A stretch of DNA of 64,000 bases from Vulcanimicrobiota bacterium (GCA_050250895.1 JBFWNU010000001.1:455998-519997); one strand, 5' to 3'. Positions 4,841 through 52,793 are shown, counted from the stretch's first letter. Numbers and translations: made by a program. The notes: generated by a model from the sequence alone, not told the origin.

Positions 4841-4843
4841 CGG

Positions 4844-5581: not shown

Positions 5582-5787
5582 GCTACCCACCCCCAATGCA
5601 TGTTGTCAGAAATAAGCCTTCGGTCTCAGCCAGAGTCGACCTTCCTGATGGCCGAGGTGAACCGACCAGAGTCGTCCCTCGTAGCTCAACTGAGGCCGCC
5701 CCCGGGAATTGAATTGAGGTCAACCCAGGACTCGTAACCTCAAGGTGGAACACAAGAAATCAACAATTTCTAAGTGGGGGGGGCAAT

Positions 5788-8907: not shown

Positions 8908-10607
8908 GAAACAGACGCTTAGCCCTGATCCTGCTCCCCATCCTGGTCCTCGCGCTCCCGGTCTCGGGTCAGCAATTACCGGACCCAAGCGCAGAGCGCA
9001 TTCGTCTCGGCGAATCCGAGGTCGTCTCCTTCGTCCCTGGCGCTCGCCGAGAGAAGACCGTAGCTGTTGCAATGGGCCTACGCCCCCAAAATGAATGGCC
9101 ATCGCCTGACGACTTTGCACAAACCTATTTCGGCTTAGAAGACCACTACATCACCCCTGGCGGCAAGAGATTGACACTTCTCTATGGCGTGTTTGAGTCC
9201 AAGAGGGACGCTGCTGATGCCCTGCGTTATATAGGGGGGCTTCGAAACGGAATCTTGCCGACCGATGTGGCTGACCCTGTGGGTGACCTCGCCGAAGGTG
9301 TGAGCAGGAGCTACGTTTTTGTTCTTGACCGCGGGATATGCGGGTTGGAGCAATCATCCGTCAGCGAGAACGACGCAATAAACCTCAAGCCGATCGCCCT
9401 CGCAGTAGCCAACAAGATGGCGGCCGCGGGCATGCAGGCTGCCCCACCCTTCATCTTGCAAACGACTGCTGTATCAGACACTGCTGGCCCAAACAGCCAT
9501 GTAGTGCTTGATTGTTCAGCCATTACTGATCCCTCCTGGCAGCCCGTCGAATTTGCGGTGAGTATTACTGCCAGCATTGAGCGATTGCCGCTCGAGCTCT
9601 ATCACTTCTTCAAGACGGAAGCCCCAGACGGAATGTGCCACTTCGAATGGGATGGACGCGATCCCGAAGGATTCTTGGTGCCTCCCGGCCAGTACCTCCT
9701 GAGCCTAAGCGCTACGGATAACCTCGGTCGCTCCAAACTCGTTCGCGTCCCGATTACGGTTGCAGCGGGCACGCCGAGCTCGCTTACCATCCCGCCATCG
9801 AAGGACTCCACTCTCCGCTCGGCCGATCCGCACCAAAATGAAGGAGCCAACCCGCAACTGGTCCTGAGCCATATGCCGGAACGACGCGGTCGAGCCAACA
9901 ACCCCATCGTAGCTTTCGATCTTTCCCAGGTGGAGCTGGCCGGTCTCACCCGGGCCACCCTGGCCCTCGATGTGCGCGAGTGTAGCTTGCCGCGCTTTTG
10001 GGGACCCGACGGACGCTATCTCCAGGCCCAGCGCATCCTGTCACCCTGGGTCGAGGGCAACGGAAAGGACTTGCTGCTCTTGCCGCGGCATAGTTCGCGC
10101 GGTAACGGCCAGGGAGCCACCTGGTTCTCCCCCATCGACAACGACATCTCCAACACCGGACCCAATGGGTCCGAGCAATGGCAGGGCGCGCGTTTGGCCT
10201 TGGCGCCGCCGACCGCCCCATCGGTTCTGGTGGTCAACGGCCAGACCGGTGTGGTCGAATTCGACGTGACCCAGGACGTACTTAACGGCGCGGCCCACGG
10301 CTGGCTCGTGCGCAAGCAAGACGAGAGCCGCTTCGGGAACATCCGCTTCTCCTCCAAGGAAGGCGACAGCCCGCCTCGCCTGCTGCTCGAATACGGCAGT
10401 CCGCAAGCCCATCACTCGGCGGGGCTGGCTGCTCTGACACCTGCCCGCCTGGTAGCCAATCCGCTCGGGTTGGAGGGTCAGACGACTCGACGGTCAGCCC
10501 TTGCACTAATGGGTGGAGATGTCCTGACCGCGTTGCTCGACGGAAATCCCTTTGCGGGAGCGATGTTTCGCCTGATACGGGTGACCTGGCAAGCGAACCT
10601 GGTTTAA
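8904..10607 (+). CDS. Secreted protein with FlgD-Ig and DNRLRE-like domains
   Basis: Signal peptide; WDGRDPEGFLVPPGQY...ATDNLG; KDSTLRS..P.QNEG, FDVTQDV, FSSKEG..PRLLLEY; start overlaps upstream stop (ATGA). Confidence 0.75.
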   Translation: MRNRRLALILLPILVLALPVSGQQLPDPSAERIRLGESEVVSFVPGARREKTVAVAMGLRPQNEWPSPDDFAQTYFGLEDHYITPGGKRLTLLYGVFESKRDAADALRYIGGLRNGILPTDVADPVGDLAEGVSRSYVFVLDRGICGLEQSSVSENDAINLKPIALAVANKMAAAGMQAAPPFILQTTAVSDTAGPNSHVVLDCSAITDPSWQPVEFAVSITASIERLPLELYHFFKTEAPDGMCHFEWDGRDPEGFLVPPGQYLLSLSATDNLGRSKLVRVPITVAAGTPSSLTIPPSKDSTLRSADPHQNEGANPQLVLSHMPERRGRANNPIVAFDLSQVELAGLTRATLALDVRECSLPRFWGPDGRYLQAQRILSPWVEGNGKDLLLLPRHSSRGNGQGATWFSPIDNDISNTGPNGSEQWQGARLALAPPTAPSVLVVNGQTGVVEFDVTQDVLNGAAHGWLVRKQDESRFGNIRFSSKEGDSPPRLLLEYGSPQAHHSAGLAALTPARLVANPLGLEGQTTRRSALALMGGDVLTALLDGNPFAGAMFRLIRVTWQANLV

Positions 10608-10679
10608 TCGGCCTCCGCGCATCCGCCGTGAATCTTCTTACCCGAGGCGAGCCGGAAACGCGTTAGCATCGTTTCCGAA

Positions 10680-10707
10680 CTACCGTCTACCGTCTTCCGA
10701 CTACCGT
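10680..10707. repeat. Short heptamer repeat (CTACCGT)x4, imperfect
   Basis: ctaccgt ctaccgt cttccga ctaccgt. Confidence 0.55.
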
Positions 10708-10722
10708 CTGTCTGCCCCCGAC

Positions 10723-10751
10723 TTGACGGGCCATGGTCACGCTCCTATAAT
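10723..10751 (+). promoter_or_regulatory. Sigma70-type promoter of the glycosylation operon
   Basis: TTGACG-17 bp-TATAAT. Confidence 0.8.
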
Positions 10752-10839
10752 AGCCTGAACTTTTCGCCATCCTCCTGGGTGGAGGAATGTCAATCCCCTG
10801 CGAGAATGCACGCGCAGAATTTACAGCTTGGATGTAGTT

Positions 10840-11613
10840 ATGGTTTCGCTCACACTCGTCGTTCCAGTCCTCAACGAAGAGATTCTGCTGGAGCGCTTTC
10901 TGGTAAAGACCCAGAATGACCTCAACGAGGCCAAGATCGACTGGGAACTGATGCTCGTCAACGACGGCAGCACCGACAACTCGCTGAAGATCATGAACGA
11001 CTTCGCCAGCGGCAAGTCCAACGTTCATGTCATCGACCTCGAGGGCAATCACGGCCCCGGCGCCAACCTCTATAAGGCCTACTCGATGGCCAGCAAGGAC
11101 GTGGTGGCCTACGCCACCGTCGACGGCTTCTATGACACCAAAGTCCTACCGTCGCTGCTGGTGCACTTCGAAGAAAACGACGCCGTCAGCGCCTACCGCA
11201 CCGATCTGGTGGCTCATCCAGGCTTTCGCAAGCTGCAGACGATGGTCAACGTCTACCTGCAGCGGGCCATGTTCCCCTACGAATTCAAGGCCGTGCACAC
11301 CCTGCAGATTCATCGGCGCGACTTCCTCCAGAGCGTGGGGCTCGAGTCGAAGACTCCCTTCCTGTGCTCCGAAATGCTATATAAGGCCACCGAGCTCGGC
11401 TTCAAGATCAAGGAAGTGGGCATCGAATATCTGCCGCGCCACGCTGGCAAAGCAACGGGCGGTAACCCCAAGCTGATCTACCGCACCATGGCGGACATCT
11501 TCTACTATTGGTTTAAATGGTTCGTGCTGCGACGCCCGATGGTCCCGGCCAACCTGGGACTACGGACGGGGGGGTTTCGGAACCTCCGCCCAGAACTGAC
11601 GAGGGCAGGCTAG
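10840..11613 (+). CDS. GT2 glycosyltransferase (polyprenol-phosphate glycosyltransferase/DPM1-like)
   Basis: LTLVVPVLNEE, VNDGSTDNS, N.GPG, KIKEVGIEY.PR..GK. Confidence 0.9.
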   Translation: MVSLTLVVPVLNEEILLERFLVKTQNDLNEAKIDWELMLVNDGSTDNSLKIMNDFASGKSNVHVIDLEGNHGPGANLYKAYSMASKDVVAYATVDGFYDTKVLPSLLVHFEENDAVSAYRTDLVAHPGFRKLQTMVNVYLQRAMFPYEFKAVHTLQIHRRDFLQSVGLESKTPFLCSEMLYKATELGFKIKEVGIEYLPRHAGKATGGNPKLIYRTMADIFYYWFKWFVLRRPMVPANLGLRTGGFRNLRPELTRAG

Positions 11614-11617
11614 ACTA

Positions 11618-12910
11618 ATGGATGTCCGTGACAGGGCGCTACTCGACCTACAGCGCGTACTCGATGTCAAACCGCCCGTCCGGCCGCGCTTTGACCCTCA
11701 AGAAGCCCGCTACCTCGACTTCAAGACCCGCGTCGGCAAGCTACTTAAAGAAGCTCTGGGCGACGGTGCTCAGGCTTTCCTCGAGCATTACTTCCTAGAA
11801 TTCTTGCCGGTCTTGATCCGGGCCGCCGGCGAGCATGAGAAGCTTCACGAGATCGAGTGCGAGCAGCAGTTTCAAGAGATCAACGAGGTCTTTGACAAGG
11901 ACCTGCACAATCTCTCGCATTCGCCCATGATCTTCCCCCTCAACCGCCAGGTCTTCCGCCTGGTGGCTCCGGCCTCGCCGGCCCTGGATCTTGGCATCGG
12001 CCAGGGCCAGAACTCCCAGTTCACCCTGGGCGGGCGTCCCCTCGACGTGGGCGCCGACATCATGGTCAGCAATCTGATCAAGGCCCGCCAGCGCAAGTGC
12101 CACAAGTCGTTCGTGGCCATGGACATGGGCAACATCCCCTTTGCCAACGAGACCTTCCAGCGCGTCTACGCCCTCAACTGCCTTTACCACGTGCAGATGG
12201 GCCGGCGCAAAGCGCTCGAGGAAATCTCGCGGGTGCTGGCTCCGGGTGGGCAGGTCGCTCTGACCGACATCAGCCCTTTCCTCACCGATATGAAGCCGTT
12301 GCGCCAGTTCTTCGAAAGCCTCGGCTTCGGCCAACTGGGAGCCGAGTTCAGCCGCTACTTCCTGAGCGGATTCGGCGCCGACGGCACTCCCGGCGAGAAA
12401 GAGTTCTACACCGAAACCCTGATGGAACTTGGCTTCGAGAACATCACGGCCCGCTATCTGCTCAGCCCCCGGCTGACCCAGCTGTCGTATCTGTTCTATG
12501 ACTGGCAGGCGCTGTTCAATCTCAACGCCCAGTCCAAACTCGAGGGGGCCGAGGGGCTCAAGCGCCTCAACGCCACCTATCGGCCCATGCTCAAGACGGT
12601 GGTGGCTCCCTTGATTCGCCTTGACGAAGAGTTGTGCTACCGCGAACAGTGCGGCGGCTACCTCTTCGTGACGGCCCAAAAGCGGGGCACGCCCGACCCC
12701 AAGAAGACCACCCGGTTCGTCTGGGACGAGCACCTTATCTGTCCCACCAGCGGCGCGCCGCTGACCAAAGAGGGCGAAACCTATGTCTGCCGCGAGTCCG
12801 ACCGGGCCTACCCGGTGGTCGATGGCATTCCGCTGCTGACCGATTTCTACGCAGACAACGTCGAGATCCAGACGGCGGCCCCGGCCGAAGAGAAGAAAAC
12901 CAAGAAGTAA
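11618..12910 (+). CDS. Class I SAM methyltransferase with C-terminal Trm112-like domain
   Basis: LDLGIGQG, IPFANETF, RVLAPGG; C-terminal LICPTSGAPL...C....RAYPVVDGIPLL. Confidence 0.85.
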   Translation: MDVRDRALLDLQRVLDVKPPVRPRFDPQEARYLDFKTRVGKLLKEALGDGAQAFLEHYFLEFLPVLIRAAGEHEKLHEIECEQQFQEINEVFDKDLHNLSHSPMIFPLNRQVFRLVAPASPALDLGIGQGQNSQFTLGGRPLDVGADIMVSNLIKARQRKCHKSFVAMDMGNIPFANETFQRVYALNCLYHVQMGRRKALEEISRVLAPGGQVALTDISPFLTDMKPLRQFFESLGFGQLGAEFSRYFLSGFGADGTPGEKEFYTETLMELGFENITARYLLSPRLTQLSYLFYDWQALFNLNAQSKLEGAEGLKRLNATYRPMLKTVVAPLIRLDEELCYREQCGGYLFVTAQKRGTPDPKKTTRFVWDEHLICPTSGAPLTKEGETYVCRESDRAYPVVDGIPLLTDFYADNVEIQTAAPAEEKKTKK

Positions 12911-40051: not shown

Positions 40052-40255
40052 ACTCCTCCGGCCTGAGACATCCCCCGGCATCTGGGTATAACCAGGTTTG
40101 GAGGATCACTTGGAAAGCCCAAAACCTGAAAGCCAGCCACCGGCCACACCACTTCCCCTCGCCCTGCGCTCGACCATCGATTGGATCTTGACCGACGCCC
40201 GGGATTTGCCCGGGCGTTATCTTTGGGAGGCCACCGCACCCGAAGGCGGCGAGTA

Positions 40256-41830
40256 ATGCTCGAGCGCCTGATGGGCCTCGAGACCGAGTACGTCATTCGC
40301 TATAGCAGCCAGGACGGCTCGGATTTCTGGCGAGGAGCCCCTCGCCCAACCCGTCAGTGTTTCTACGAGGCCATCGAGACGGCGGTCAAAAGCCTTTTGC
40401 GCTGGGCTCCGGCCATCGAGGGCATCTTCCTCGAGAACGGCCAGGCCCTTAGCTTCGAACACGGCGGCCTCGACCCCGACGGTGGGTTGCTCGAGGCCAA
40501 GACTCCCGAATGCCGCACCGTGGCGGCCCTCTTGACCTCGCAGAAGGCTCAAGAAGCGATGTTGCTGACCGCCCTCGGGCGGGCCGAGGCCAGACTTCCC
40601 TGCGGCGGCAAATTGGGCCTGGTGAAAAACTGCCGCGACGCTCTGGGCAACACCTATGGCGCGCAAGAAAACTACGAGGTCGAGATCGCCTCGGGCCGGG
40701 GCTTGTTGGCCTACCGAACCCTGCTCGGACTGGTGCTGGTCTTGACCCTGCTGCCCTACAGTCTGATGACCCTCTGTTTCGGGATGGGACTTTTGCTCTG
40801 GCGTATCCTGCCGGCCTATCAGGAGGTCTTGTGGCAGGGCCTGGAGGAGCTTTGCTGGCGTCTCTTCTCGGCTCCCGGGCGCCTGTTTGCCCGGGTGCTC
40901 GACCGCTTCGCCTTTCGCGACTATCGCAGCCAGGCCACCGCCTTCTTCATCAGCCGCCAGCTCTTTACCGGGGCCGGCACCCTGCGCGACGACGGCTGCT
41001 TCGAACTTTCCGAGCGAGCGGCAGCCGTCTCGACCGAGATGACCTCGATGCGCCGGATCAGCGAGTATAGTCTTTTCAAGACCACCCACCTGCATCAGCA
41101 GATGCTCTGGCTGCTGGGGTTTCGCCCTGTGGCCCGCCTCTTTTGGCGGCGTCAGCGACTGCAAGTCGGCTGCTCGGACGCCAACATGGCTCAAACGGCC
41201 GAGTACCTCAAGATAGGAACGACCAGCCTGGTGCTCGATATGGTCGAAGCCGGCTTGCTCCACGACGCACCCCGGCTCGAGGATCCGGTCTGGGCCTACA
41301 AGGCCGTCTCGGCCGACCCGACCCTGGCCTGCCAGGTAGCTACCGACCGCGGCCGGCTCTCGGCTCTGGCTCTGCAAGGCTATTACCTCGACAAAGCTCG
41401 CCAGTTCGTGGCGGACTCTCCGAGCCTCGAGGCGGCTCGGCTGGTCACCCTGTGGGGTGAAACCCTGGACCTGCTCGGACAAGACCCGGCCCGACTCTTC
41501 GGGCGCATCGACTGGGTAACCAAGCGCATTCTGCTCGAGGAATCCGGCTCGGACTGCCTCGAGGTCAAAAAGAAGCTCGACCTCAAGTATCACGAGTTAG
41601 GCACAGGCTACCTGGCCGCCCTCGAGCGGGCAGGCTATGTGCCCAGCCTGGTGCCGCCGGAAGCGGTCCAGGAAGCCATGACCTCGCCGCCTGCGGACAC
41701 TCCGGCCTGGTCCCGGGGCCAACTCATCCGCCGGCTCGAGGCGCAACCAGCCCTGTTCCACTGGGATTGGGCTCGGGTGGGAGGCCTCTGGAACGCCAAA
41801 GTCATCCAATTCCGCCAGCGGGAGCGGTAA
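40256..41830 (+). CDS. PafA/Dop-family (Pup ligase-like) protein with transmembrane insertion
   Basis: RLMGLETEY, FLENG, E..TPEC, KN.RD..GNTYGAQENY, RLQV..SDANM, YLKIGTTSLVL, IDWVTK, DLKYHEL; hydrophobic insert after ENY. Confidence 0.88.
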   Translation: MLERLMGLETEYVIRYSSQDGSDFWRGAPRPTRQCFYEAIETAVKSLLRWAPAIEGIFLENGQALSFEHGGLDPDGGLLEAKTPECRTVAALLTSQKAQEAMLLTALGRAEARLPCGGKLGLVKNCRDALGNTYGAQENYEVEIASGRGLLAYRTLLGLVLVLTLLPYSLMTLCFGMGLLLWRILPAYQEVLWQGLEELCWRLFSAPGRLFARVLDRFAFRDYRSQATAFFISRQLFTGAGTLRDDGCFELSERAAAVSTEMTSMRRISEYSLFKTTHLHQQMLWLLGFRPVARLFWRRQRLQVGCSDANMAQTAEYLKIGTTSLVLDMVEAGLLHDAPRLEDPVWAYKAVSADPTLACQVATDRGRLSALALQGYYLDKARQFVADSPSLEAARLVTLWGETLDLLGQDPARLFGRIDWVTKRILLEESGSDCLEVKKKLDLKYHELGTGYLAALERAGYVPSLVPPEAVQEAMTSPPADTPAWSRGQLIRRLEAQPALFHWDWARVGGLWNAKVIQFRQRER

Positions 41831-41865
41831 AGGTCTGGCCGGCCAGGGCCGGGAATGGCCGCCCT

Positions 41866-42645
41866 ATGCGAAACCTGATTCTCTTGTTAGCTCTGCTTTT
41901 GCCCGTCCAGGCCCTGGCCCAGGACTGGGCCAAAGCTCGCTTAGAAAAGTCTCCCCGCCACCTCGAGTGGGTTGACCTAAAACACGGCGACCGCGTGGTC
42001 AAGGCCTTCGTGGCTTATCCCGAGCGCCCCGAGAAAGCCCAGGTCGTGGTGGTCATCCACGAGATCTTCGGCCTGACCGACTGGGCCCGCCTGATGACCG
42101 ACGAGCTGGCGGCCGCCGGTTACATCGCCATCGCCCCTGACCTCTTGAGCGGCTCAGGCCCCAACGGCGGTGGCACGGCTTCATTGGGCGGAGTAGACGA
42201 AGCCCGTAAAGCCATCCGCGAGCTGCCCCCCGCCCAGGTCACGGCCGACCTCAAAGCAGCCGTCGATTATGGCCTCAAGCTACCGGCCGCCAACGGCCAG
42301 GTCAGCGTGGCCGGCTTCTGCTGGGGCGGCACCGAGAGCTTTCGCTTCGCCACTAACGAAAAGCGCCTGAAAGCGGCCTATGTGTTCTACGGCACCGGCC
42401 CCGAGGACGTGGCCAGCATCGCTTGCCCGGTCTATGGCTTTTACGCCGAGAACGACGCCCGAGTGAACGCCACCCTCGAAGCCACCACCGCCCGCATGAA
42501 AAAAGCCGGCAAGACCTATCAGCCGGTCATTTACCAGGGCGCGGGCCACGGCTTCATGCGGGCCGGCGAAGACCCGGAAGGCTCGGCCGAAAACAAGCAG
42601 GCCCGCGACCAAGCCTGGAAACGCTGGAAAGAGCTGCTGAAGTAG
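41866..42645 (+). CDS. Exported dienelactone hydrolase-family protein
   Basis: Signal peptide; HEIFGL, GFCWGG, AGHGF. Confidence 0.92.
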   Translation: MRNLILLLALLLPVQALAQDWAKARLEKSPRHLEWVDLKHGDRVVKAFVAYPERPEKAQVVVVIHEIFGLTDWARLMTDELAAAGYIAIAPDLLSGSGPNGGGTASLGGVDEARKAIRELPPAQVTADLKAAVDYGLKLPAANGQVSVAGFCWGGTESFRFATNEKRLKAAYVFYGTGPEDVASIACPVYGFYAENDARVNATLEATTARMKKAGKTYQPVIYQGAGHGFMRAGEDPEGSAENKQARDQAWKRWKELLK

Positions 42646-42847: not shown

Positions 42848-43183
42848 GTGTCCAAGGCTGTCAAGGTTTCCCAGAAATTAGCGAGTGCGGCTGCCAGGGA
42901 GGCAGAGTTTATGAATCGCTCGATGGCTAAGCAGATAGAACACTGGGCCGAACTGGGACGTCGACTGGAAAGCTCTGGCGCGTTCAGCTTCGCTCAGCTT
43001 CGTGGTTTTCTGGCTGGTGAAGCTAGCTTTGACGCGCTGTCCGTTTTGGAGCAGGCGGTGGCGGCGGAGGCGCTTCTGGAGGACTTGGAGCGATTCGAGC
43101 CCTCGGCTGAATTTGAGCGCGAACTTAACGAGGGACTTGGCCACTCGGGGCTGGATCATGGCGGCAAGATCGTCCGGCACTAA
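42848..43183 (+). CDS. ParD-like (RHH) antitoxin
   Basis: VKVS..L...A..EA....RS...QIEHWA.LGR. Confidence 0.8.
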   Translation: MSKAVKVSQKLASAAAREAEFMNRSMAKQIEHWAELGRRLESSGAFSFAQLRGFLAGEASFDALSVLEQAVAAEALLEDLERFEPSAEFERELNEGLGHSGLDHGGKIVRH

Positions 43184-43186: not shown

Positions 43187-43771
43187 TTGAGCTTCTCAAA
43201 ACAGCCTCTCATGATCTGCCTGGTGGGAGTCAATGGCGCGGGCAAGTCCACCTACTATCGAGAAAAGCTCGCGCACCTACAGCTTCCTTTTTTGAATGCC
43301 GACGTTTTAGCCAAAGAGCTGTGGCCTGATGAGCCCGATGCCCACGCTTATGAAGCAGGTCGCCAAATCGCGCAACAGCGGCAAGCGCTCATAGAACAAG
43401 GCAAGAGCTTCGTAACCGAGACTGTCTTTTCTCATCCCTCCAAGCTCGAACTGCTGGAAATGGCCAGAAGTTATGGCTACCGCGTCTGGCTGGTATATAT
43501 CCATTTGTCCGAGGCAGAGTTAGCCATTAAGCGCGTGGAAGAACGCGTCTCTCGAGGTGGGCATCCAGTGCCGCCAGAGAAGATAGAACTACGCTACCAG
43601 CGCCTGCTTCAACAAGTGAAGGTGGCTATTCGTGGGGTTGATCGGGCGCTTCTGTTTGATAACTCTTGGCACGGAAGACCTTTTAAGCACATTGCCACCC
43701 TCAACGCTGGCGTTGTGCAAAAGGCTTACCATCCCCTCCCCGCCTGGGCCAGAGAGCTGCTTGGCTCTTAG
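43187..43771 (+). CDS. Zeta-toxin-like P-loop kinase
   Basis: GVNGAGKST, LNAD, SFVTETVFSHPSK, RV..RV..GGH.VP. Confidence 0.85.
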   Translation: MSFSKQPLMICLVGVNGAGKSTYYREKLAHLQLPFLNADVLAKELWPDEPDAHAYEAGRQIAQQRQALIEQGKSFVTETVFSHPSKLELLEMARSYGYRVWLVYIHLSEAELAIKRVEERVSRGGHPVPPEKIELRYQRLLQQVKVAIRGVDRALLFDNSWHGRPFKHIATLNAGVVQKAYHPLPAWARELLGS

Positions 43772-43863: not shown

Positions 43864-44283
43864 ATGGAAAACCTACCGCGACGTAAGCCGGGCCTCGATT
43901 TAGAGGATCTGGGTGAAGAACTCATCGTCTACAACCCTTCTACCGAAACGGCTTCTTGTCTGAACTCCGTGGCCCGTATCGTTTTTGAAGCTTGCGACGG
44001 CTCGACTTCCGTGGCCGAGGTCAGTCGACGCCTGGCCTCAGGCGATTGCTCTGAAGATCTGGTTCTGCTCACCCTGGCGGAGCTCGACGAGAAAGGATTG
44101 TTGGAGACTCCGGTTGAGGGACTTAACCGCCGGGACTTTTTCGCCCGTTGGGGCAAACTCGTAGCCGTTCTGCCCCTGGTGGCCTCGATCGCGGTCCCGG
44201 AGGCCGCTCGGGCTGCATCGATGGACGGTCCCGGGGGTGATACAGCAACCACCACCGACCTCACCGGGACAATTACCGGCTGA
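43864..44283 (+). CDS. PqqD/RRE-domain protein fused to Tat-like leader and Thr/Asp-rich core (putative RiPP precursor)
   Basis: EDLGEELIVYN...CLNSVARIVFEACDG...LDEKGLL; NRRDFF...ARAAS; core MDGPGGDTATTTDLTGTITG. Confidence 0.8.
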   Translation: MENLPRRKPGLDLEDLGEELIVYNPSTETASCLNSVARIVFEACDGSTSVAEVSRRLASGDCSEDLVLLTLAELDEKGLLETPVEGLNRRDFFARWGKLVAVLPLVASIAVPEAARAASMDGPGGDTATTTDLTGTITG

Positions 44284-44380
44284 TCGACTGATGCAGATGG
44301 TCATTCGGCGCATCCGGGATCTAGGACGGTAATCTCCAATACTCAGCCCTGAGCTATTATGCTGGCCGACTTCACTCGAA

Positions 44381-45550
44381 GTGGCCTCCTCAGGGGCGGA
44401 GGTTTCCTTTCGCCTCGGTCGGGAGGTGAGGTGGACAGAAAGGGCCCCGACCTTGGCCCGCCTCTGTCAAACCTACGGCCATCTTTGGACAGATTCGAAC
44501 AACCCACCTCAACCAGCTTCTCCCAACTGCGACTTGTCCCCGACCGAAGAGCTGGTACTGGCCCGTTTGATGCGACGAAGTCTTCTGGTTCCTCAAACCG
44601 GCCTTCACGTCGCACCGCCTGGGCCACGGCACCTTCCAGTCGACGCGCTGCCCCAGAATTTCAGTTTGGGAGTGCGCTGGCTTGAGTTCCCTGGCGGGCT
44701 TCAAGCCCCATTCTTCAGGGAGGATAGAAAAGAGAGCGAGGCCCAATCTCGAGGCGAGGTGACAGAGGCGCCCCTGCCTTGCCTGATCCAACTGCAGGAC
44801 CGCCAACTTCCCAAAGGTTTCATCTTTCACGGTTCCCGCTCGGGGTCCACCCTGCTGTCACGGTTTTTCACCCTGAGCGAAGAAATAACGGTGCTCTCCG
44901 AGCCGACGGCCTTTGGCCGACTGGCGGCCTTATCGACAGAGTTCGGTTCCCCCCTCTCCTTCCGTGCGATGATGCGCGCTCTCGGGGTGCTCAATCCGGG
45001 AACCAGGTCCGTGGTCTGCAAACTGAATTCTGCTACAGCCCTCCACATTTCGGAGCTCCTCCGTTCTTTTCCGGAGATACCCTGGGTTTTCGTGTCGCGC
45101 CATCCGGCCGAGATCCTGGACTCCAATCTACGCAAGACTGGTGGATGGCTACGAAATGGGAAGGCGGAAGGGGCTTCTCCAGATGTCCTGACAGCCCGAG
45201 TGATGACCGCTCTTACCAACATCTATCGGGCCGTGCTCGAGGTGCTTCCCCGTTCCGGCCTGGTGGTGCCCTATGAAAAGCTGTGCCACGGAGAAGGCTT
45301 CGAGCAGGCGGCGGAACATTTTGATCTGCAACTGAGCGCCGAAAACGTCGCACGTGGCCGCCGCGCCCTGAACTTCCACGCTCACACAGGAAAGCCGTTC
45401 GACCCCAGAGCCATACCGGTAGAGTGCTACGAGACGGTGGAGCGACGCTATTCCCGGGTGCGGGAACTCTACCACGAGATAGAGTTCTACGGGCGGCGGC
45501 AGGCGAGGTCAGTCCACAAAGCCGTTAATCCAGAGGTAATGAAGCAGTAG
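44381..45550 (+). CDS. Sulfotransferase-family protein
   Basis: 5'-PSB-like FIFHGSRSGSTLL; LSEP; 3'-PB-like VSRHPAEILDS; YEKL. Confidence 0.75.
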   Translation: MASSGAEVSFRLGREVRWTERAPTLARLCQTYGHLWTDSNNPPQPASPNCDLSPTEELVLARLMRRSLLVPQTGLHVAPPGPRHLPVDALPQNFSLGVRWLEFPGGLQAPFFREDRKESEAQSRGEVTEAPLPCLIQLQDRQLPKGFIFHGSRSGSTLLSRFFTLSEEITVLSEPTAFGRLAALSTEFGSPLSFRAMMRALGVLNPGTRSVVCKLNSATALHISELLRSFPEIPWVFVSRHPAEILDSNLRKTGGWLRNGKAEGASPDVLTARVMTALTNIYRAVLEVLPRSGLVVPYEKLCHGEGFEQAAEHFDLQLSAENVARGRRALNFHAHTGKPFDPRAIPVECYETVERRYSRVRELYHEIEFYGRRQARSVHKAVNPEVMKQ

Positions 45551-46675
45551 TTTGCCCAGCTCTTCTTCCAAGGCCGGGAAGCTATCTGCGGACAAGCTCT
45601 TCAGAGGCAAAACGCCGGATATCGTTTTCAAGAGTGTTTTCCTCAGCCTGAGCTTGTTGCTACGCGCACCACTTTGACAGAGGATGAAATCTCTGGGTGA
45701 GGTGTCGAGCGACCAGTCGCCGACTCGCCGGCGCTCTTGTGCCACTTCCTCCGCTCGGTCGCGGCGGATGGAATTGGACTGGTTGTGAGGTGACGTTTGA
45801 GGTGCGGGCTGCAGGCTGTCCTGGGTCAGGCTCTCTTGGACCTCGGAGAGCAGCTCGCGCAGGTAAGCTGAGTCGAGAGTCGTCTCGGCCTTTTTGGCCA
45901 GGTAACTTCGCAGGCGGTCTCGCTTCAGACTGGCCTGTTCCAGCAAGTCTACCAGCAGCGAGTGATTGGTTACCGGGTGAAAACCGAGGGTGAGATGGGC
46001 TGAGTGAGTTTCGCGGCAGCCGGCATCGTGCTCGAGCCCCCGAGGCAGAAAGAAGAGGTCGCCCTCTTTTAACACAAGCCGCTCAAATCTTTCATCCTCA
46101 AACTTCACTCCGGCACGTTTTCCCACCTTGCGCAAAGGCTTGCCCTGCCTGAGCTCGCCCAGCCGCCAGTGCTTTTGGCCGCTGATCTGGGCCACCAGGA
46201 TGTTGTGAGTATCGTAATGGCTACCCAAAGCCCGGCTACCGGCAGGCGTGTAGTAGTAGTTCACGCCCATACATCCTGTGATGTATCGCTCGAAGGGAAG
46301 CAAATGGCTGCGGAGATGGCTCGAATACCGGTGGATCTGATGAACCGATGTGCTCGCGCCGGCCTGGAGAAGCACCTCCAACCGATCGTAGTCGAGACCA
46401 CCGCCCGGATGAGTGTATTCACTCCTGTCAAGCAGATGGCCTGAGAACACTACTCTCAGCTCCTCGGCATAGGCGGGAGAAAATCTCAATCTGGCTTCGA
46501 TGTCTCGCTGGGTCACCAGACCGGTGACGCACGTGCGAAGGGGTTCTCTTGGGAAGAGCTTCCACTGCTTGTCGAACAGGTCGCCCTCAAAGATCTCCGC
46601 GGCAACTTGAGAGAAGTCGGTAGCCTGGGGAGAGAGGAGCGGCGTCGGGCTACCAGGCACGTTGACTTGTTCCAT
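45509..46675 (-). CDS. JmjC/cupin-4 2OG-Fe(II) oxygenase (YcfD/NO66-like)
   Basis: NYYYTP, HYD, Q..GQKHW, L.EGDL.FLPRG..HDA, SAHLTLG. Confidence 0.88.
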   Translation of the reverse strand: MEQVNVPGSPTPLLSPQATDFSQVAAEIFEGDLFDKQWKLFPREPLRTCVTGLVTQRDIEARLRFSPAYAEELRVVFSGHLLDRSEYTHPGGGLDYDRLEVLLQAGASTSVHQIHRYSSHLRSHLLPFERYITGCMGVNYYYTPAGSRALGSHYDTHNILVAQISGQKHWRLGELRQGKPLRKVGKRAGVKFEDERFERLVLKEGDLFFLPRGLEHDAGCRETHSAHLTLGFHPVTNHSLLVDLLEQASLKRDRLRSYLAKKAETTLDSAYLRELLSEVQESLTQDSLQPAPQTSPHNQSNSIRRDRAEEVAQERRRVGDWSLDTSPRDFILCQSGARSNKLRLRKTLLKTISGVLPLKSLSADSFPALEEELGKLLLHYLWINGFVD

Positions 46676-46964
46676 GACGGTCTATTGGGAAGAGCGATGA
46701 CGAAGCCCTTCCAATCCTGAAGCCTCGATTGGTGTGCCCGACAACGAGGCAGTCGCACCCCGGCGGTGAACATGATGGCCGTGAAGCAAAAGCATGTCAC
46801 CAGATGCTTCTTGTGTTATGGCGTACCGTTTAATCTTGAGGCCGATGCCGGCCTCTTCCCGAGTTCGCCCGGAGCTTTTACACCGGAGTGAGAGGCGAGG
46901 TCGACGAGGCCGCGGACTGGATCGCCGGATTGCTCAAGATGTCGAATTGATCTAGTCTGAGCGA

Positions 46965-48440
46965 ATGCAACAGGAGCAGAAAACCAGCAGGGGCAAATGG
47001 CCAAGCCTTGACTTACGCTCCCTTGCCCTCTTTCGGATTCTGTTGGGAATCCTTCTCTTGGCGGATTTGCTCTATCGGTGTGCCGATTTCTCAGTTTTTT
47101 ATGCAGACGGTGGAATTCTTCCGCCTGGTCTAGATGCACTCCACTCAAAGTCCTTCATCCACGGCCTATCAAACTCGACGATTTGGCAGGTCCTCGTCGT
47201 TGCAATGCAGGGTATCGCCATCATTTGCGTGGTTGTCGGGTACCATACCAAAGTAGCGCTGGCTGCGTGTTGGGCACTTCTCGCTTCCCTCAATCATCGC
47301 AACCCTTGGATTCTTCAGATCGCCGATCGAGTCTATATTTATTGGATCGTCTACGCCCTACTCTTACCGACCCATTTGCGTTTTTCACTCGATCGTCGTC
47401 GCTTGGACAAGGCATCTCAGGATGCCACACAGACGGGCTCGATTGTTAGCCTGCTTCTGCTATTGCAAGTGGTTGGAATCTACGAGATCGCAGCCTCGTA
47501 CAAAGCGTTCACCGAAACCTGGCGAACAGGCTCGATCCTCATCGAGGCGATGCGCACTGATGCGGTGGCGACTGACTTGGGAAGGAGCCTGCTCGCGTTC
47601 CCTGGCCTGCTGAAATTTGCGGGTCAAGCCACCCTGGTTTTCGAGTTTGTCGGTCCCATCCTGCTCTTGTGCACCTGGAAACGCGGCATGCCTCGCACCA
47701 TACTATGTTTTGCGTTTGTCTCGTTCCATCTCTTTGGCATAGGACTGATGATGAAACTGGGCCTGGTGGGGGGGGCGCTCGCAGTCGTTTGGTTCGCGCT
47801 TTTACCTGGGTGGTTTTGGGATGTGCTGCTGCCAAAGTGTGGCATCCATCGCTTCCAGTCCGACAGACCCAAATCTGTGCCAAACCAGTCCTGGTCTCGG
47901 GTTACAAGCGTGGTTGTTTGCACCATCTGGGTCATCAGCTGGTCAACGACACTTGCCCGCGCCACCCCCCGATTTCAAGTCCCCCATGTCCTACAGTACC
48001 TCCTGAGCGCAACGGGATTGGCTCAAGATAAATTTAGCCTGTGGACCGATCCAGGTGGCTCCAGACGTTTCGTCTTCGCAGCAACTCTTGCCAACGGTAG
48101 ACAGATTGACCTGCACACCGGGCGAGACTTGGACTGGACGTCTCCGCGGCAATGCCCCAAGAACAACCACTGGTACAAGTGTTTCCAGAAACTGCGCCGC
48201 GACGAGCGTGTTGCAGAGAACGTGGCCAGATACTTTATCAACGAATGGAATGAAGGAAAATCTGAAGATGAGCGCGTCGTCAAGATGGAAATCGTCATCC
48301 TGCTCGAGAGAAAGCAACCTGCTTCCTTTTGGCTCAATGCAGAAGACCCCAAAACCATCGAGGTTCCCTCAGTCAAATTGAAAGCTGGGCGATTTGACGT
48401 ATTCTATTCGAACGATGGCACCAGACTCATCAGGGAATAG
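46965..48440 (+). CDS. HTTM-domain membrane protein (VKGC/SdpB-like)
   Basis: DLRSLALFRILLG, SLNHRNPWI...AD, SLD, Y..A..K....W..G, FH. Confidence 0.8.
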   Translation: MQQEQKTSRGKWPSLDLRSLALFRILLGILLLADLLYRCADFSVFYADGGILPPGLDALHSKSFIHGLSNSTIWQVLVVAMQGIAIICVVVGYHTKVALAACWALLASLNHRNPWILQIADRVYIYWIVYALLLPTHLRFSLDRRRLDKASQDATQTGSIVSLLLLLQVVGIYEIAASYKAFTETWRTGSILIEAMRTDAVATDLGRSLLAFPGLLKFAGQATLVFEFVGPILLLCTWKRGMPRTILCFAFVSFHLFGIGLMMKLGLVGGALAVVWFALLPGWFWDVLLPKCGIHRFQSDRPKSVPNQSWSRVTSVVVCTIWVISWSTTLARATPRFQVPHVLQYLLSATGLAQDKFSLWTDPGGSRRFVFAATLANGRQIDLHTGRDLDWTSPRQCPKNNHWYKCFQKLRRDERVAENVARYFINEWNEGKSEDERVVKMEIVILLERKQPASFWLNAEDPKTIEVPSVKLKAGRFDVFYSNDGTRLIRE

Positions 48441-48849: not shown

Positions 48850-49041
48850 GTGACGAAGCAGGACTTGATCAAAGAACTGCTGGAGCTTCCCGATGGGGCT
48901 CCTCTGGACCGAATTGCAGCCGAACTCGAGCGGGCGCGCTTTGCGGTTTCAGTCTCACGGGGGCTTGAGCAAGCAGACGCTGGGCGAGTGAGCCCACACG
49001 ATGAATTCGTCGCCCGGTTCAAGAAGAGATTTGAATACTGA
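48850..49041 (+). CDS. Small putative antitoxin
   Basis: KQDLIKELLELPD...RGLEQADAGRV..HDE; directly upstream of a ParE-like frame. Confidence 0.75.
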   Translation: MTKQDLIKELLELPDGAPLDRIAAELERARFAVSVSRGLEQADAGRVSPHDEFVARFKKRFEY

Positions 49042-49395: not shown

Positions 49396-49471
49396 TGGTG
49401 CCGAGGGACGGAATCGAACCGCCGACACTGCGATTTTCAGTCGCATGCTCTACCGACTGAGCTACCTCGGC
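49396..49471 (-). tRNA. tRNA-Phe(GAA)
   Basis: GCCGAGG acceptor stem, CT-GAA-AA loop, GGTTCGATTCC, CCA end. Confidence 0.97.
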
Positions 49472-49529
49472 TCGAACGAACCCCTTTTGACAGGGAAAAC
49501 CCGGGTGTTATCCCGGGCCTCGTTCGTTT

Positions 49530-49606
49530 TGGCGGGAGCGACGGGATTCGAACCCGCGATCTCCGGCGTGACAGGCCGGCGCCCTAAGCCGCTAGGCCAC
49601 GCCCCC
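49530..49606 (-). tRNA. tRNA-Asp(GTC)
   Basis: CCGGC-CTGTCAC-GCCGG anticodon arm, GGTTCGAATCC, CCA end. Confidence 0.97.
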
Positions 49607-49625
49607 GTGTATGTCACTAATTTCC

Positions 49626-49701
49626 TGGTGGGCGGAAGAGGACTCGAACCTCCAACCCCTTGCATGTGACGCAAGTGCTCTGCCAATTGAGCTATCCGCC
49701 C
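49626..49701 (-). tRNA. tRNA-Val(CAC)
   Basis: CTTGC-GTCACAT-GCAAG anticodon arm, GGTTCGAGTCC, CCA end. Confidence 0.95.
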
Positions 49702-49741: not shown

Positions 49742-50391
49742 GCCTCAGCCGGGATGTCGCTCAAAGCCCGTTGTAGCGCCTCGCGAGCGTGCTCGACGTG
49801 GCGCAGAGCGGCCTCGAGTTCGGCGCGTTTTCCGGTCTCGAGATGCGAGTTGATGGCCTCGAGCGACTCGGCCAGGGCGTCGAGGGCGATGCCCGCCGAG
49901 AGGCTATCGGCCTCGGGCGATAGATTGAACATCGAGGGGTCTTCGGCCTTGAGCATGGCCTGCTCGAGACGAGCGAAGCCCTCTTCCATCTGAGCCTCGG
50001 CCATCGCCAGCAAGTCTTGCGATTGCTCGAGCGACTCGAAGCTGGTCGCCGAGAGAAAGAACTTGCGCAAAGTGGCCAGGCTCTCGTCGATATGCTCGCG
50101 GCTGGTCTCGAAGTCTTCGACCAGTCCCTGGGCCTGGGCGGCCGCCTCGGGATCTTCCTCGAAGTTCTCGGCGGCTGTCTCGCCGGCAGCCGAAAGCTCG
50201 TCGAGGCCGTCATGAATGTGGTCATAGGCGTAATCGAGGACCTCGCGCACGGCCCCCTGGATGTGGGCGAACAGGCTATCCAGACGCTCGCGGGTGAGGG
50301 GAATCTCGCGCCGCACCATCCGCTCGGACACGTTCCGCAGCAGGTCGAGGGGAATCTGTAGGCGTGACTCTTCAGCTTGCTCGGTCATCAC
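49738..50391 (-). CDS. Acidic all-helical hypothetical protein
   Basis: Very E/D/A/L-rich; overlaps the upstream gene's stop. Confidence 0.75.
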   Translation of the reverse strand: MMTEQAEESRLQIPLDLLRNVSERMVRREIPLTRERLDSLFAHIQGAVREVLDYAYDHIHDGLDELSAAGETAAENFEEDPEAAAQAQGLVEDFETSREHIDESLATLRKFFLSATSFESLEQSQDLLAMAEAQMEEGFARLEQAMLKAEDPSMFNLSPEADSLSAGIALDALAESLEAINSHLETGKRAELEAALRHVEHAREALQRALSDIPAEA

Positions 50392-52793
50392 GCGATGGCG
50401 TCCAAACCGCCCAGCTCGGGCCCGTCGAGTTCGCCTCCGAGGTCGACCTCACCACCCAGGTCCTGGCCCATCGGCGAGTCCTGACCCAGCTGGTCGAGGC
50501 CACCCTGAGCTAGCAGATCCTGGTTGGGCAAGCCGCCCTCGCGGCCGGCTTCGCCCGCACCGTCGCCACCAGCCAGGCCCGCCAGGCCCAGCCCACCAGC
50601 GGCCCCACCGCCAGCGGTGCGGATGCGACCGGCCGGTTGGCGGTCCGAGCCTTTGAGGGCGTTGCGGGCCATCGACTCGGTGTCGCCACCGATCTCGACG
50701 CCGTCCTGAGCGATCTTGTTGTAGAGGTCGACCAGCTGGCCTTGAGCGGCCTGCAGCTGGGCTTTCTGAGAGCCAGTCGGTTTGCGCTCGGTGGCACCTT
50801 CGCCACCCTTGAGTTCCATCACCTGACCGGCCAACTCGCGCAACTGAGCCTCGTAGGCGGTGCGGGTCTCGCTGGCCTGACCGGTGCGCTGAGCGCCCCG
50901 GGCGCGGTTGGCGCCGCGTGCGCCGCGGCTGCGATTGCGGCCCGACTTGTTGTTGCGACCTTTCTCTTTGGCCTTCTTCTCTTTATCGGCCAGCTTGTCG
51001 TCTTTCTTGTCCTTGGCCTCGTCCTTCTTGGACTTCTCGTCAGCCTTCTTCTCTTTGTCGCCCTTCTCGGCTTTGTCAGCCTTGTCGGGTTTGCCGGTCT
51101 TTTCGGTCTTGTCCGCCTGGCCCGGCTTATCGGCCTCGGGCTTGCGCGTCTCGCCTTCGGCTTTGGGCTCGGTCTTAGGTCCGTCGGCTTTGGCGCCCTC
51201 GCCAGCGGTCCCGGTCGCTTTGGCTACCGGCTCGGCCGGGCCGGCCGCCCTGGGCCCGTCCACCGGAGCGGGTGCCTCGACCTTGGCCTCGGCCGCTGGT
51301 GCGGCAGCAACCGGTGCAGGCGCTGCCGCCACGACCGGAGCCGGCACGTCGGCCACGGGAGCCACATCGACCGGGCCGGCGACATCGCCGCCTCCACCGA
51401 TGTCGCCACCTCCACCAAAATCACCACCGCCGATATCTCCTCTCCCACCGAGACTGAAGCCACCGCCACCACCAAAGGACGGGCCGCCTCCGCCTCCGCC
51501 AAAAGACGGTCCACCGCCGCCTCCACCAAAGCTGGGCCCGCTTGAGATCGGCATGGCCGGCACGAAACTGGGAGCAGCCGAAGGGGTGGGTAGGGTCGGC
51601 GCGGGAGCGGCCGGCGCCAGCGCTTGAGCCGCCATGCCGGCGCCCATCGCGGCCGCGCCACCGAGCAGCATGCCTTTGGCCAGGTCGCCCATCTGGCCGA
51701 TGCCCTGCATCGCCTGCAGTCCGGCCATCTGATTCTGCTGTCCGCCCTGGCTGCCCACGTTGGCGGTGCGGCCCAGTTGAGCCATCCGGGCGGCGATCTC
51801 TTGTTGGTTCGAGACGTTGACGCCGAGGGCTTCCGAGACCTTCGAGCGAGCTTCCTGAATCTGCTTGAGACGATTGATGCCCTGGTCGAGCTTGGTCTTG
51901 GTGGCCAGCTTCTTGGCCTGTTGAGCCAGCTTCTGGGCCTTCATCTTCTCGGACAGGCCCTTCATCTTCTGGGCCGTCATGTCCATTTTCTTGGCCATCT
52001 GGTCCATCATCTTAGCCACCTGTTTGAGGCCTTTGGCGATGGCCTTGAGCATGGCCGCCACCGCCTTGAGAGCGGCCGAAAGCGCGGGACCGACGAAGGG
52101 AATGGCGGCCACCGCGCTGGCGGCGGCTTGAACCGCCTGGGCGGCCGACTCGATGGCGGTGGCGGCCGCGTTGAGAGCCTTGCCCACGCCCTTGAGAGTC
52201 TTGGAGATGCCCTTGAAGACCTTCTCCTTGACGTTATAGAACTTCTCCTTCTGGCCGAAGGTCTTCTCCATCTTGGCGTACTTTTGGAACGTCTTGCTCA
52301 GGCCCTGATTGGTCTGGGTCTGGGACTTCTGGTCCTGGCCGATGCGAGAGAGGGCCTGACTCAGTTGAGAACGCTGGCTCTGCTGGGTGCCGAGCATGCC
52401 CTGCAACTGGTCTACGCTCTTGATGCCGTCGACGCCCGAAATGCGCGAGACGTTGAAAGAAGGGGGTGAATAGCTGCCCGTGTTGCCCCCGGCTACGGCG
52501 TTGGCCATTTGACCGCGCAGGTCGCCCCCGAGCCCCAGACCGCCACTGGCGGATTTGCGGGCGCCACCGCTGTTTTTATAGGTCTCGCCAGCGCCCTTCT
52601 GAGAGGCTACGCCCTGCTTGGTGCCCGAAACCGACTGGCTCTTGCCCTGCCGAATCGAGTCGAAGTGCTCTTGCTTGATCTTCTTGCGGGCTTTGCGCTT
52701 CTTGCGAGCTTTGCGAAGCTTGGCATCCGCCTTGTCAAACTCGGTCCCTATCTTATCAGGGAGTTTGAGATCTGCTGACGGGATTGCATCCAT
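50388..52793 (-). CDS. 801-aa coiled-coil protein with hydrophobic hairpin and low-complexity tracts (translocator/pore-former-like)
   Basis: K/Q-rich coils flanking AAASAVAAIPFVGPALSAALKAVAAML; G-rich, PA-rich and KD-rich tracts. Confidence 0.7.
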   Translation of the reverse strand: MDAIPSADLKLPDKIGTEFDKADAKLRKARKKRKARKKIKQEHFDSIRQGKSQSVSGTKQGVASQKGAGETYKNSGGARKSASGGLGLGGDLRGQMANAVAGGNTGSYSPPSFNVSRISGVDGIKSVDQLQGMLGTQQSQRSQLSQALSRIGQDQKSQTQTNQGLSKTFQKYAKMEKTFGQKEKFYNVKEKVFKGISKTLKGVGKALNAAATAIESAAQAVQAAASAVAAIPFVGPALSAALKAVAAMLKAIAKGLKQVAKMMDQMAKKMDMTAQKMKGLSEKMKAQKLAQQAKKLATKTKLDQGINRLKQIQEARSKVSEALGVNVSNQQEIAARMAQLGRTANVGSQGGQQNQMAGLQAMQGIGQMGDLAKGMLLGGAAAMGAGMAAQALAPAAPAPTLPTPSAAPSFVPAMPISSGPSFGGGGGGPSFGGGGGGPSFGGGGGFSLGGRGDIGGGDFGGGGDIGGGGDVAGPVDVAPVADVPAPVVAAAPAPVAAAPAAEAKVEAPAPVDGPRAAGPAEPVAKATGTAGEGAKADGPKTEPKAEGETRKPEADKPGQADKTEKTGKPDKADKAEKGDKEKKADEKSKKDEAKDKKDDKLADKEKKAKEKGRNNKSGRNRSRGARGANRARGAQRTGQASETRTAYEAQLRELAGQVMELKGGEGATERKPTGSQKAQLQAAQGQLVDLYNKIAQDGVEIGGDTESMARNALKGSDRQPAGRIRTAGGGAAGGLGLAGLAGGDGAGEAGREGGLPNQDLLAQGGLDQLGQDSPMGQDLGGEVDLGGELDGPELGGLDAIA

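Follow-up and report, generated by a model that had tools for sequence, protein, structure and literature searches.

A window of 64,000 nucleotides (nt) from a Vulcanimicrobiota bacterium (GCA_050250895.1, JBFWNU010000001.1:455998-519997) encodes, at positions 43864-44283, a protein of 139 amino acids (aa) that looks like the precursor of a modified peptide, endowed with its own export signal and with a built-in domain of the PqqD or RiPP recognition element (RRE) type (RiPP: ribosomally synthesized peptide with post-translational modifications); homology and motif conservation support this view. Judged from the sequence, the gene is one member of a large and apparently undescribed family, in which a shared leader precedes highly diverse cargo, and the putative sulfotransferase encoded next to it (44381-45550) is its likely partner. 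We propose that the two genes constitute a peptide-tailoring module with precursor and sulfotransferase as its core, a proposal that we hold to be probable by a modest measure. It is based on domain homologies, motif conservation, paralogy, family size and neighbourhood statistics, from which we infer the chemical steps, the target residue, the use of twin-arginine translocation (Tat) and the cleavage. A first-pass annotation of the window had outlined a larger RiPP-like pathway, which also included a JmjC oxygenase and an HTTM-family membrane protein encoded downstream. The leader family is a bigger finding than this four-enzyme pathway.

Architecture of the putative precursor and its leader family

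The 139-aa protein comprises a PqqD-homologous domain (residues ~9-81), a twin-arginine signal (residues ~88-118) with the elements NRRDFF, a hydrophobic stretch and P-x-A-A-R-A, and a Thr-rich tail (residues 120-139). The tail, MDGPGGDTATTTDLTGTITG, contains seven Thr and three Asp in 20 residues, compared to five Thr in the first 119 residues of the protein. Since two orthologs with 85-86% identity (P0002 and P0003) keep the Thr-rich run (TTATTTTVTGTITG), the tail is probably functional. The three Asp residues, which the first-pass annotation had put forward as hydroxylation sites, are replaced in the same orthologs, and that part of the proposal is not upheld.

Taken alone, the window protein scores below the cut-offs of Pfam PqqD (PF05402; 19.2 bits versus 23.4) and TIGR03859 (19.2 bits versus 46), and two of nine paralogs scanned pass the former (43.1 and 27.2 bits). 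The homology emerges upon profile comparison: hhalign matched the family profile to a genuine standalone PqqD protein of the same genome (74.8 bits in Pfam) with a probability of 96% and E 4.9e-9 over 71 columns. The nearest clusters in the ESM Atlas are PqqD families (score 0.94-0.95), and a sequence-profile search of the PDB retrieved weak winged-helix, PqqD and TbiB1 matches only (E 0.018-0.55).

An alignment of 24 paralogs from the same genome (A3) reveals a PqqD-like block of the form E-L-L-V-Y-x-P ... A-H-x-L-N ... C-D-G-x-T, followed by the signal columns R (24/24), R (23/24), F/L, L (23/24), the hydrophobic stretch, P (23/24) and A-x-A. The cleavage-type motif A-x-A-A-S is near-invariant in these paralogs, with Ser in 24/24. 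Two of nine paralogs scanned pass the TIGR01409 TAT_signal cut-off, and the genome carries one gene for TatC. The signal does not occupy the N-terminal position expected of a Tat signal: a folded domain precedes its motif, which begins at residue ~88. The hairpin mode in which such signals insert is compatible with the presence of a cytoplasmic domain on their N-terminal side. The combination of PqqD-like domain, internal Tat-like leader and Thr-rich tail described by the first-pass annotation is thus borne out by paralog, profile and motif evidence.

The 9.5-Mb genome (17 contigs) yields 25 translated-search matches to the 139-aa protein, and a hidden Markov model (HMM) of the family detects 27 proteins with the full PqqD+Tat module, a multiplicity that had escaped the first-pass annotation, as had the recurrent kinase and nucleotidyltransferase partners of the family (see below). 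Among these paralogs, the cargo behind A-x-A-A-S differs completely: most cargo regions are Cys-rich, roughly 100-130 residues long and often end in CCxxC, as opposed to a short Thr-rich tail in only three members, one being the window gene and the other two a tandem pair at G000:C1:897351-898280. Each relative within the same family and order possesses 1-6 copies, with cargo ranging from 34-residue Cys-rich strings, Gly-rich regions and collagen-like GPTG repeats to a vWA-like protein of ~480 residues. A close ortholog of the window precursor is lacking in 60 relatives (best identity 45%), and in the rest of the phylum the matches mostly consist of the PqqD part alone (~90 residues).

A profile search of 1.84 billion cluster representatives gave 11,117 matches at E<=1e-3, of which 5,409 reach E<=1e-10 and 53 reach E<=1e-30. 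Of the best 150 representatives 149 were retrieved, and in every one of these the match extends over both the PqqD and the signal parts; their cargo, as classified by a simple parser, is Cys-rich in 114 cases (18-160 residues), Ser/Thr-rich in 4, Gly-rich in 6, of another type in 12 and truncated or unparsed in 13. Pfam and NCBIfam contain no model covering the whole PqqD+Tat module or the Cys-rich cargo. Full-text searches of the literature, subscription journals and supplementary files aside, brought up no natural system with a leader of this kind, and by their titles and abstracts none of the papers retrieved on RiPP precursors and the twin-arginine route deals with a natural Tat-exported RiPP.

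The near-invariant A-x-A-A-S motif just behind the hydrophobic stretch also bears on the role of the protein, as it would be needless in a membrane-tethered PqqD adaptor, which retains an uncleaved signal-anchor with a short external tail and presents a separate peptide to the sulfotransferase or to membrane machinery. An adaptor would be in line with the observation that, in all characterised systems known to us, PqqD/RRE domains bind another peptide, and with the standalone PqqD genes that accompany sulfotransferases and kinases elsewhere in the genome; moreover, the hydrophobic stretch could act as a transmembrane helix. Yet the hypervariable part behind the motif resembles a core peptide, which at one locus (L130, see below) is a Cys/Ser/Thr-rich string encoded beside a YcaO gene, the type of tail predicts the neighbouring enzyme, and no other small precursor-like open reading frame (ORF) was noticed between 43.8 and 48.4 kb. 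An adaptor function is decidedly unlikely in our view, and the 139-aa protein is treated here as a putative substrate.

Several individual family members merit description. The second member in the window (Table 1) is separated by about 3 kb from a gene for a Ser/Thr protein kinase (430-1593, minus strand), and Pkinase genes also neighbour two other paralogs. The family member with the vWA-like cargo of ~480 residues is encoded at positions 4883-6850 of locus L129/L016 (G002:C11). At locus L146 (G004:C5), a family member with the collagen-like tail TGPTGPTGITGPTGPTGATGPTGPG (7986-8444) is followed by two genes, one for a 656-aa protein that weakly matches GT2 and TPR and one for an NTP_transf_5 protein; the metagenomic representatives P0159, P0217 and P0222 have similar GPTG tails. 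Finally, a contig of an actinobacterial metagenome-assembled genome (Microthrixaceae; L166) encodes a PqqD+Tat-like member (7911-8786) with 39% identity over the module and a long cargo ending in a Thr/Ala-rich run, the one locus obtained from the collection of genome contigs with the alignment query A5.

Sulfotransferases beside Ser/Thr-rich tails

The neighbourhood count, which considered enzymes within 5 kb, comprises 68 family genes at 61 loci (the window, 20 loci of its own genome and 40 from relatives). A sulfotransferase gene lies near 4/4 genes with a short Ser/Thr-rich tail versus 1/64 of the other family genes, the single case being among the 12 genes with tails classified as other, and none among the 48 Cys-rich and the 4 Gly-rich ones. 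The naive probability of this distribution is 6e-6 if counted by genes and 1e-4 if counted by loci. The genome under study contains only about 14 sulfotransferase genes, and 3/27 of its family members have one within 6 kb; these are exactly the three members with a Thr-rich tail.

At the second Thr-tail locus of the genome (L106, G000:C1:889351-906280), three sulfotransferases and a peptide-kinase homolog are grouped around two tandem precursors (Table 1). Among the loci of the family in this genome, L106 is the richest in tailoring genes; its upstream 400-aa ORF (6028-7230) matched no Pfam or NCBIfam model. In another genus, locus L130 (G014:C73, positions 104-5539) combines a YcaO gene (724 aa, 305 bits), a family precursor, a Sulfotransfer_2 gene (59 bits) and a convergent gene for an S8 subtilase with an InhA-like MAM domain. 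The tail of this precursor, SSACSCSCSCTTVTPPCTAVTAPCTTLACATSPC, is Cys/Ser/Thr-rich and 34 residues long. Since L130 is a recognisable RiPP-type cluster, the family protein is sensibly only the substrate there. The sulfotransferases beside Ser/Thr-rich tails belong to different Pfam families, which speaks against the mere inheritance of one block.

These patterns have to be weighed against a coincidental adjacency, in which the sulfotransferase would act on a glycan, a lipid or a small molecule, and the 139-aa protein would be an ordinary small secreted or low-complexity protein. The Pfam score of the enzyme is below the cut-off, its only paralog (locus L169) resides amid unrelated, uninformative neighbours, and the Ser/Thr-tail members are kin. 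However, chance does not readily account for the count of 4/4 versus 1/64, for different sulfotransferase families at different loci, for the gene content of L106, or for the recurrence of own-genome sulfotransferases in PqqD-containing clusters, and we judge a coincidence unlikely. The pairing of precursor and sulfotransferase is the part of the first-pass pathway that finds support, in the neighbourhood count and in the YcaO cluster of L130; the pathway of four enzymes is not supported.

The translated sulfotransferase carries the motifs RSGSTL and R-x7-S (RHPAEILDS), which we take to be the 5'-phosphosulfate-binding (5'-PSB) and 3'-phosphate-binding (3'-PB) motifs of enzymes dependent on 3'-phosphoadenosine-5'-phosphosulfate (PAPS). 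Its catalytic domain starts at about residue 145, and the alignment with the paralog begins at residue 98; the position of the start codon is uncertain, within a range from 44381 to 44672, and the N-terminal ~95-145 residues matched no Pfam family. Genes for adenosine-5'-phosphosulfate (APS) kinase are present in the genome.

In the proposed module, the 139-aa product would be a pre-pro-peptide composed of a cytoplasmic PqqD-type domain, a twin-arginine signal with an A-x-A site and a Thr-rich core of ~20 residues. The PqqD domain, which links leader peptide and enzyme as an adaptor in known RiPP systems but is covalently attached to the substrate here, might offer cytoplasmic tailoring enzymes a docking handle and perhaps also restrain the export signal. 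The PAPS-dependent sulfotransferase, recruited either through this domain or by means of its own 95-145-residue N-terminal extension, would O-sulfate Thr hydroxyls of the tail in the cytoplasm. Subsequently, the Tat signal would carry the modified C-terminal part across the membrane, where signal peptidase I would cut at A-R-A|A-S and thus free a sulfated peptide of ~20 residues. The usual partners of the family are HprK-like peptide kinases and NTP_transf_5 nucleotidyltransferases; it is the Ser/Thr-tail subfamily that is paired with sulfotransferases.

A number of points weigh against this reading. The sulfotransferase falls short of the Pfam Sulfotransfer_3 cut-off (24.1 bits versus 27), a sequence search of the PDB found no solved relative for it, and we know of no citable precedent for Thr O-sulfation of a bacterial peptide. 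The sulfotransferases in relatives were found by phmmer with 14 own-genome queries, an approach that is less sensitive elsewhere and favours the own genome. A quick tree built from the leader modules places the Ser/Thr-tail members in one weakly supported group (SH-aLRT 82), which contains the L106 pair, L130, two metagenomic representatives and the window gene with both of its orthologs. The association with sulfotransferases may accordingly be one old subfamily trait rather than three independent events, and the small p-values exaggerate its weight. Unlike L106, the window locus has no HprK-like kinase gene. Furthermore, it is atypical for a Tat signal to be preceded by a folded domain of ~85 residues, and the hydrophobic stretch could be a plain membrane anchor. 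Since some of the cargo is large, such as the ~480-residue vWA-like protein, the PqqD+Tat module is not restricted to RiPP-like or short peptides.

A broader and considerably more speculative generalization, to which we assign a rather low likelihood, is that PqqD+Tat leaders define an extensive class, hitherto unrecognised and comprising thousands of sequence clusters, of peptides and small proteins that are tailored post-translationally and exported. In this class the RRE would have moved from the enzyme onto the substrate, and tailoring in the cytoplasm, be it phosphorylation, nucleotidyl or glycosyl transfer, sulfation or the formation of azolines, would precede Tat export and release by signal peptidase. 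The window gene would then encode a Thr-O-sulfated member and the first ribosomal peptide sulfated on threonine.

The low-GC segment and its JmjC and HTTM genes

The four ORFs reported by the first-pass annotation are all present at the coordinates listed in Table 1. They are located in a segment of low G+C content (0.53-0.60 for its genes, compared to 0.645 for the Pup-ligase and dienelactone hydrolase genes at its left), which extends from a toxin-antitoxin pair to a group of tRNA genes. The caveat of the first-pass annotation that the genes are not co-oriented is also correct: only precursor and sulfotransferase share an orientation, with a gap of 97 nt, the JmjC gene is convergent with the sulfotransferase gene and overlaps its 3' end by 42 nt, and the HTTM gene is divergent from the JmjC gene with a spacer of 289 nt. 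A scan of the locus for promoters and terminators gave counts at the level of shuffled sequence. As no tRNA-derived or other convincing direct repeat was found within 41.5-50 kb, the term "island" is a compositional description and does not denote a demonstrated mobile element. Two further ORFs of the area are a 63-aa ORF between the HTTM and tRNA genes (48850-49041, plus strand), whose only match, to DUF3489, is weak and not significant (E 0.042), and an 801-aa low-complexity ORF (50388-52793, minus strand), which is Ala/Gly/Lys/Pro-rich, contains GGGGPSFGGGGG repeats and has a local G+C content of 0.67-0.69.

Table 1. Features of the window and of locus L106 (coordinates of the latter are local to L106).
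Locus	Feature	Coordinates	Strand	Remarks
Window	Precursor-like protein	43864-44283	+	139 aa; ORF confirmed
Window	Putative sulfotransferase	44381-45550	+	up to 389 aa; ORF confirmed
Window	JmjC_2 (ROX-type) Fe(II)/2-oxoglutarate oxygenase	45509-46675	-	388 aa; ORF confirmed
Window	HTTM-family (VKGC-like) polytopic membrane protein	46965-48440	+	491 aa; ORF confirmed
Window	Pup-ligase family protein	40181-41830	+	257.9 bits; directly left of low-GC segment
Window	Dienelactone hydrolase	41767-42645		after Pup-ligase gene
Window	ParD-like antitoxin	42848-43183	+	Pfam; left edge of low-GC segment
Window	Zeta-toxin/AAA_33 kinase	43187-43771	+	Pfam; toxin-antitoxin pair with ParD-like gene, left edge
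Window	tRNA-Phe, tRNA-Asp and tRNA-Val genes	49396-49701	-	right edge of low-GC segment
Window	Second family member, 245 aa	4844-5581	-	PqqD domain, Tat-like signal, Cys-rich cargo
L106	Methyltransferase	7214-7969
L106	Precursor, Thr tail	8016-8414
L106	Precursor, Thr tail, tandem	8496-8930
L106	Sulfotransfer_2	8932-9606	-
L106	HprK-related-kinase-A-like gene	9482-10405		TIGR04352, E 6e-17
L106	Sulfotransfer_3	10402-11136
L106	Sulfotransfer_3	11129-12004

The JmjC protein had been identified correctly, including its HxD...H residues: it scores 74.6 bits against JmjC_2 in Pfam (cut-off 22), and the motif aligns with that of MINA53, the distal His included. Its sequence relatives in the PDB are MINA53 and NO66 (E 4e-15 to 1e-13) and YcfD (E 6e-4), i.e., oxygenases of ribosomal proteins. 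The best matches among 5.8 billion proteins reach 28-37% identity over 30-41% of the query, the strongest match in 60 relatives has E 2.3e-28 at 29% identity (highest local identity 34%), and no close relative was found in the collection of genome contigs. The other 60 family loci contain no JmjC homolog, and the ~1.5-kb flanks of five distant JmjC homologs harbour no family member, sulfotransferase or HTTM gene. Membership of the JmjC gene in the pathway is hence not supported, given the lack of a close ortholog, its absence from the other family loci and its nearest solved relatives.

The HTTM assignment of the first-pass annotation holds by homology only: the protein's own sequence matched no Pfam or NCBIfam model even at E<=5, and homologs at 76-78% and many at 26-38% identity carry PF05090 in precomputed annotation. 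A search of the PDB with the HTTM profile retrieved nothing. The three paralogs in the genome do not lie beside family genes, and the other 60 family loci are devoid of HTTM homologs. The surroundings of HTTM homologs with 26-51% identity at 80 metagenome loci, many of them on short contigs, contained no family member, sulfotransferase or JmjC gene, nor a dominant partner, as no neighbour family occurred in more than 11 loci and the top representative is an apparent antisense artefact. Close orthologs of the precursor (85-86%) and of the HTTM protein (76-78%) are found in the same two source collections. Overall, the link of the HTTM gene to the precursor, claimed by the first-pass annotation, is unproven, and both the JmjC and the HTTM gene are co-residents of the low-GC segment with no sign of membership in the module. 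The recurrence across neighbourhoods that the first-pass annotation had named as a check is seen for the sulfotransferase at Ser/Thr-tail loci and is absent for the other two genes at the loci covered.

The full four-gene pathway, in which Thr sulfation would be accompanied by JmjC-catalysed hydroxylation of Asp or another residue and by an SdpB-like, HTTM-dependent processing after export, is improbable and the least likely of the alternatives considered here. The location of all four genes in one segment between the toxin-antitoxin pair and the tRNA genes agrees with such a pathway, as does the shared occurrence of precursor and HTTM orthologs in two collections, though 60 relatives lack a close precursor ortholog. 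One study also indicates that SdpA and SdpB are needed to process the signal-peptide-bearing SdpC (PMC6818787), and one cluster of the genome (L168, see below) unites three sulfotransferases with a 2-oxoglutarate (2OG)-Fe(II) oxygenase. Against the pathway stand the neighbourhoods of the JmjC and HTTM homologs from either side, the missing JmjC ortholog in all three data sets, the variable Asp residues of the tail, the convergent and overlapping position of the JmjC gene and the ribosomal protein substrates of its nearest solved relatives.

A probable peptide-tailoring toolbox and its known counterparts

BLAST clustering of the neighbours at the 61 loci revealed one group of proteins with ~250-300 residues, which is represented in 20 loci and frequently by tandem pairs, as well as NTP_transf_5 proteins in 9, ABC exporters in 8 and S8 subtilases in 5 loci. 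The ~250-300-residue proteins are relatives of HprK-related kinase A (NCBIfam E 1e-13 to 1e-23), and by group HMMs these HprK-like kinases occur within 5 kb of 33/68 family genes and NTP_transf_5 within 5 kb of 17/68. With 21-84 bits against a TIGR04352 (HprK_rel_A) cut-off of 200, the kinase homologs are related to this family but are not members. The same applies to the PqqD part, which scores 13-21 bits against TIGR04353 (PqqD_rel_X; cut-off 35), the most frequent NCBIfam match of the paralogs.

Own-genome sulfotransferases are also found in two lasso-like clusters (L167 and L168), together with a standalone PqqD, an Asn-synthase-type protein and a kinase homolog. L167 (G000:C1:2156001-2172000, positions 4648-11893) consists of two back-to-back clusters: the first encodes a ThcOx/SagB-like dehydrogenase, YcaO and a small classical precursor with the core TDGCDGGCDSCGCTYSAS, and the second, lasso-like one a kinase homolog, a Sulfotransfer_1 protein, a standalone PqqD and an Asn-synthase-type protein. 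L168 (G000:C1:3474001-3488000, positions 1158-9408) comprises genes for an Asn synthase, PqqD and a 2OG-Fe(II) oxygenase with TPR, together with three sulfotransferases, each from a different Pfam family, an HprK-like kinase and a GT8 glycosyltransferase. These data are consistent with a common peptide-tailoring toolbox in this genome, made up of PqqD-type domains, HprK-like kinases, nucleotidyltransferases and sulfotransferases, the PqqD element of which is fused to the substrate within the PqqD+Tat family.

The RiPP pathways described to date place the recognition element on the enzyme or a separate chaperone and rely on dedicated transporters for export. If our reading is true, a precursor with its own PqqD domain and Tat signal represents a different coupling of recognition, modification and export, and it would account for thousands of proteins that are labelled "hypothetical" or "PqqD family" in soil-type bacteria. 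The precursor would also be a concrete substrate candidate for the sulfotransferases that have long been noticed, but never explained, in PqqD-containing clusters. The leader profile offers a genome-mining handle for hypervariable Cys-rich and Ser/Thr-rich secreted peptides, and the module, which consists of two genes and a 20-residue tail with a predicted shift of +80 Da, is cheaply testable.

Among known systems, phosphorylated and glycosylated lasso peptides rely on the enzyme families seen around the PqqD+Tat genes. According to one source, the linear paeninodin precursor receives a phosphate on its C-terminal Ser from an HPr-kinase homolog before export, a nucleotidyltransferase glycosylates the phosphate in the case of pseudomycoidin, and PqqD-containing lasso clusters of Firmicutes carry at their edge a putative sulfotransferase with no known role (PMC8498205). 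HprK-like kinases, NTP_transf_5 proteins, sulfotransferases and a PqqD-type domain are common to both settings. In contrast to lasso clusters, which use a PqqD-type B1 protein and an ABC transporter, the PqqD+Tat family has the PqqD domain inside the substrate polypeptide and a built-in Tat-type signal, and its loci lack a lasso cyclase or B2 protease. The loci likewise differ from the HPr-rel-A system (TIGR04352/TIGR04353), as their scores are far below the model cut-offs.

The bufferins, which are RiPPs modified by MNIO enzymes, resemble the PqqD+Tat family, as described in two reports, in a cleavable export signal that forms the leader or part of it, in an often Cys-rich cargo and in a product located outside of the cytoplasm (PMC11626156, PMC12452194). 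They lack a PqqD domain ahead of the signal and depend on MNIO/DUF692 enzymes, and the signal of the PqqD+Tat family is of the twin-arginine type. Bufferin signals are Sec-type. As in the PqqD+Tat family, Nif11 and nitrile-hydratase-like leader peptide (NHLP) precursors fuse a long domain-derived leader to hypervariable short cores and occur as many paralogs per genome; the leader described here differs in being a PqqD domain, in containing an export signal and in carrying cargo up to the size of whole domains. The nearest solved relatives of the JmjC protein are the ribosomal oxygenases MINA53, NO66 and YcfD/RoxA, to which only 130-200 residues align. The SDP toxin of Bacillus subtilis also starts from a signal-peptide-bearing precursor, SdpC, which needs accessory proteins including SdpB for its maturation (PMC6818787). 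The first-pass annotation describes SdpB as VKGC-like. No SdpA-like gene was seen, and a conserved linkage of HTTM to the PqqD+Tat family was not found.

In functional terms, the PqqD+Tat family has its nearest counterparts in the tailoring of linear lasso precursors by kinase, nucleotidyltransferase and sulfotransferase and in RiPPs that bear a signal peptide, such as the bufferins. The family belongs to neither kind, because there is no lasso machinery and no MNIO enzyme, and all HPr-rel-A scores are below the cut-offs. The new element, as suggested by the protein sequences, would be an RRE-based tailoring of ribosomal peptides, in which the RRE is placed on the substrate and combined with a built-in Tat signal.

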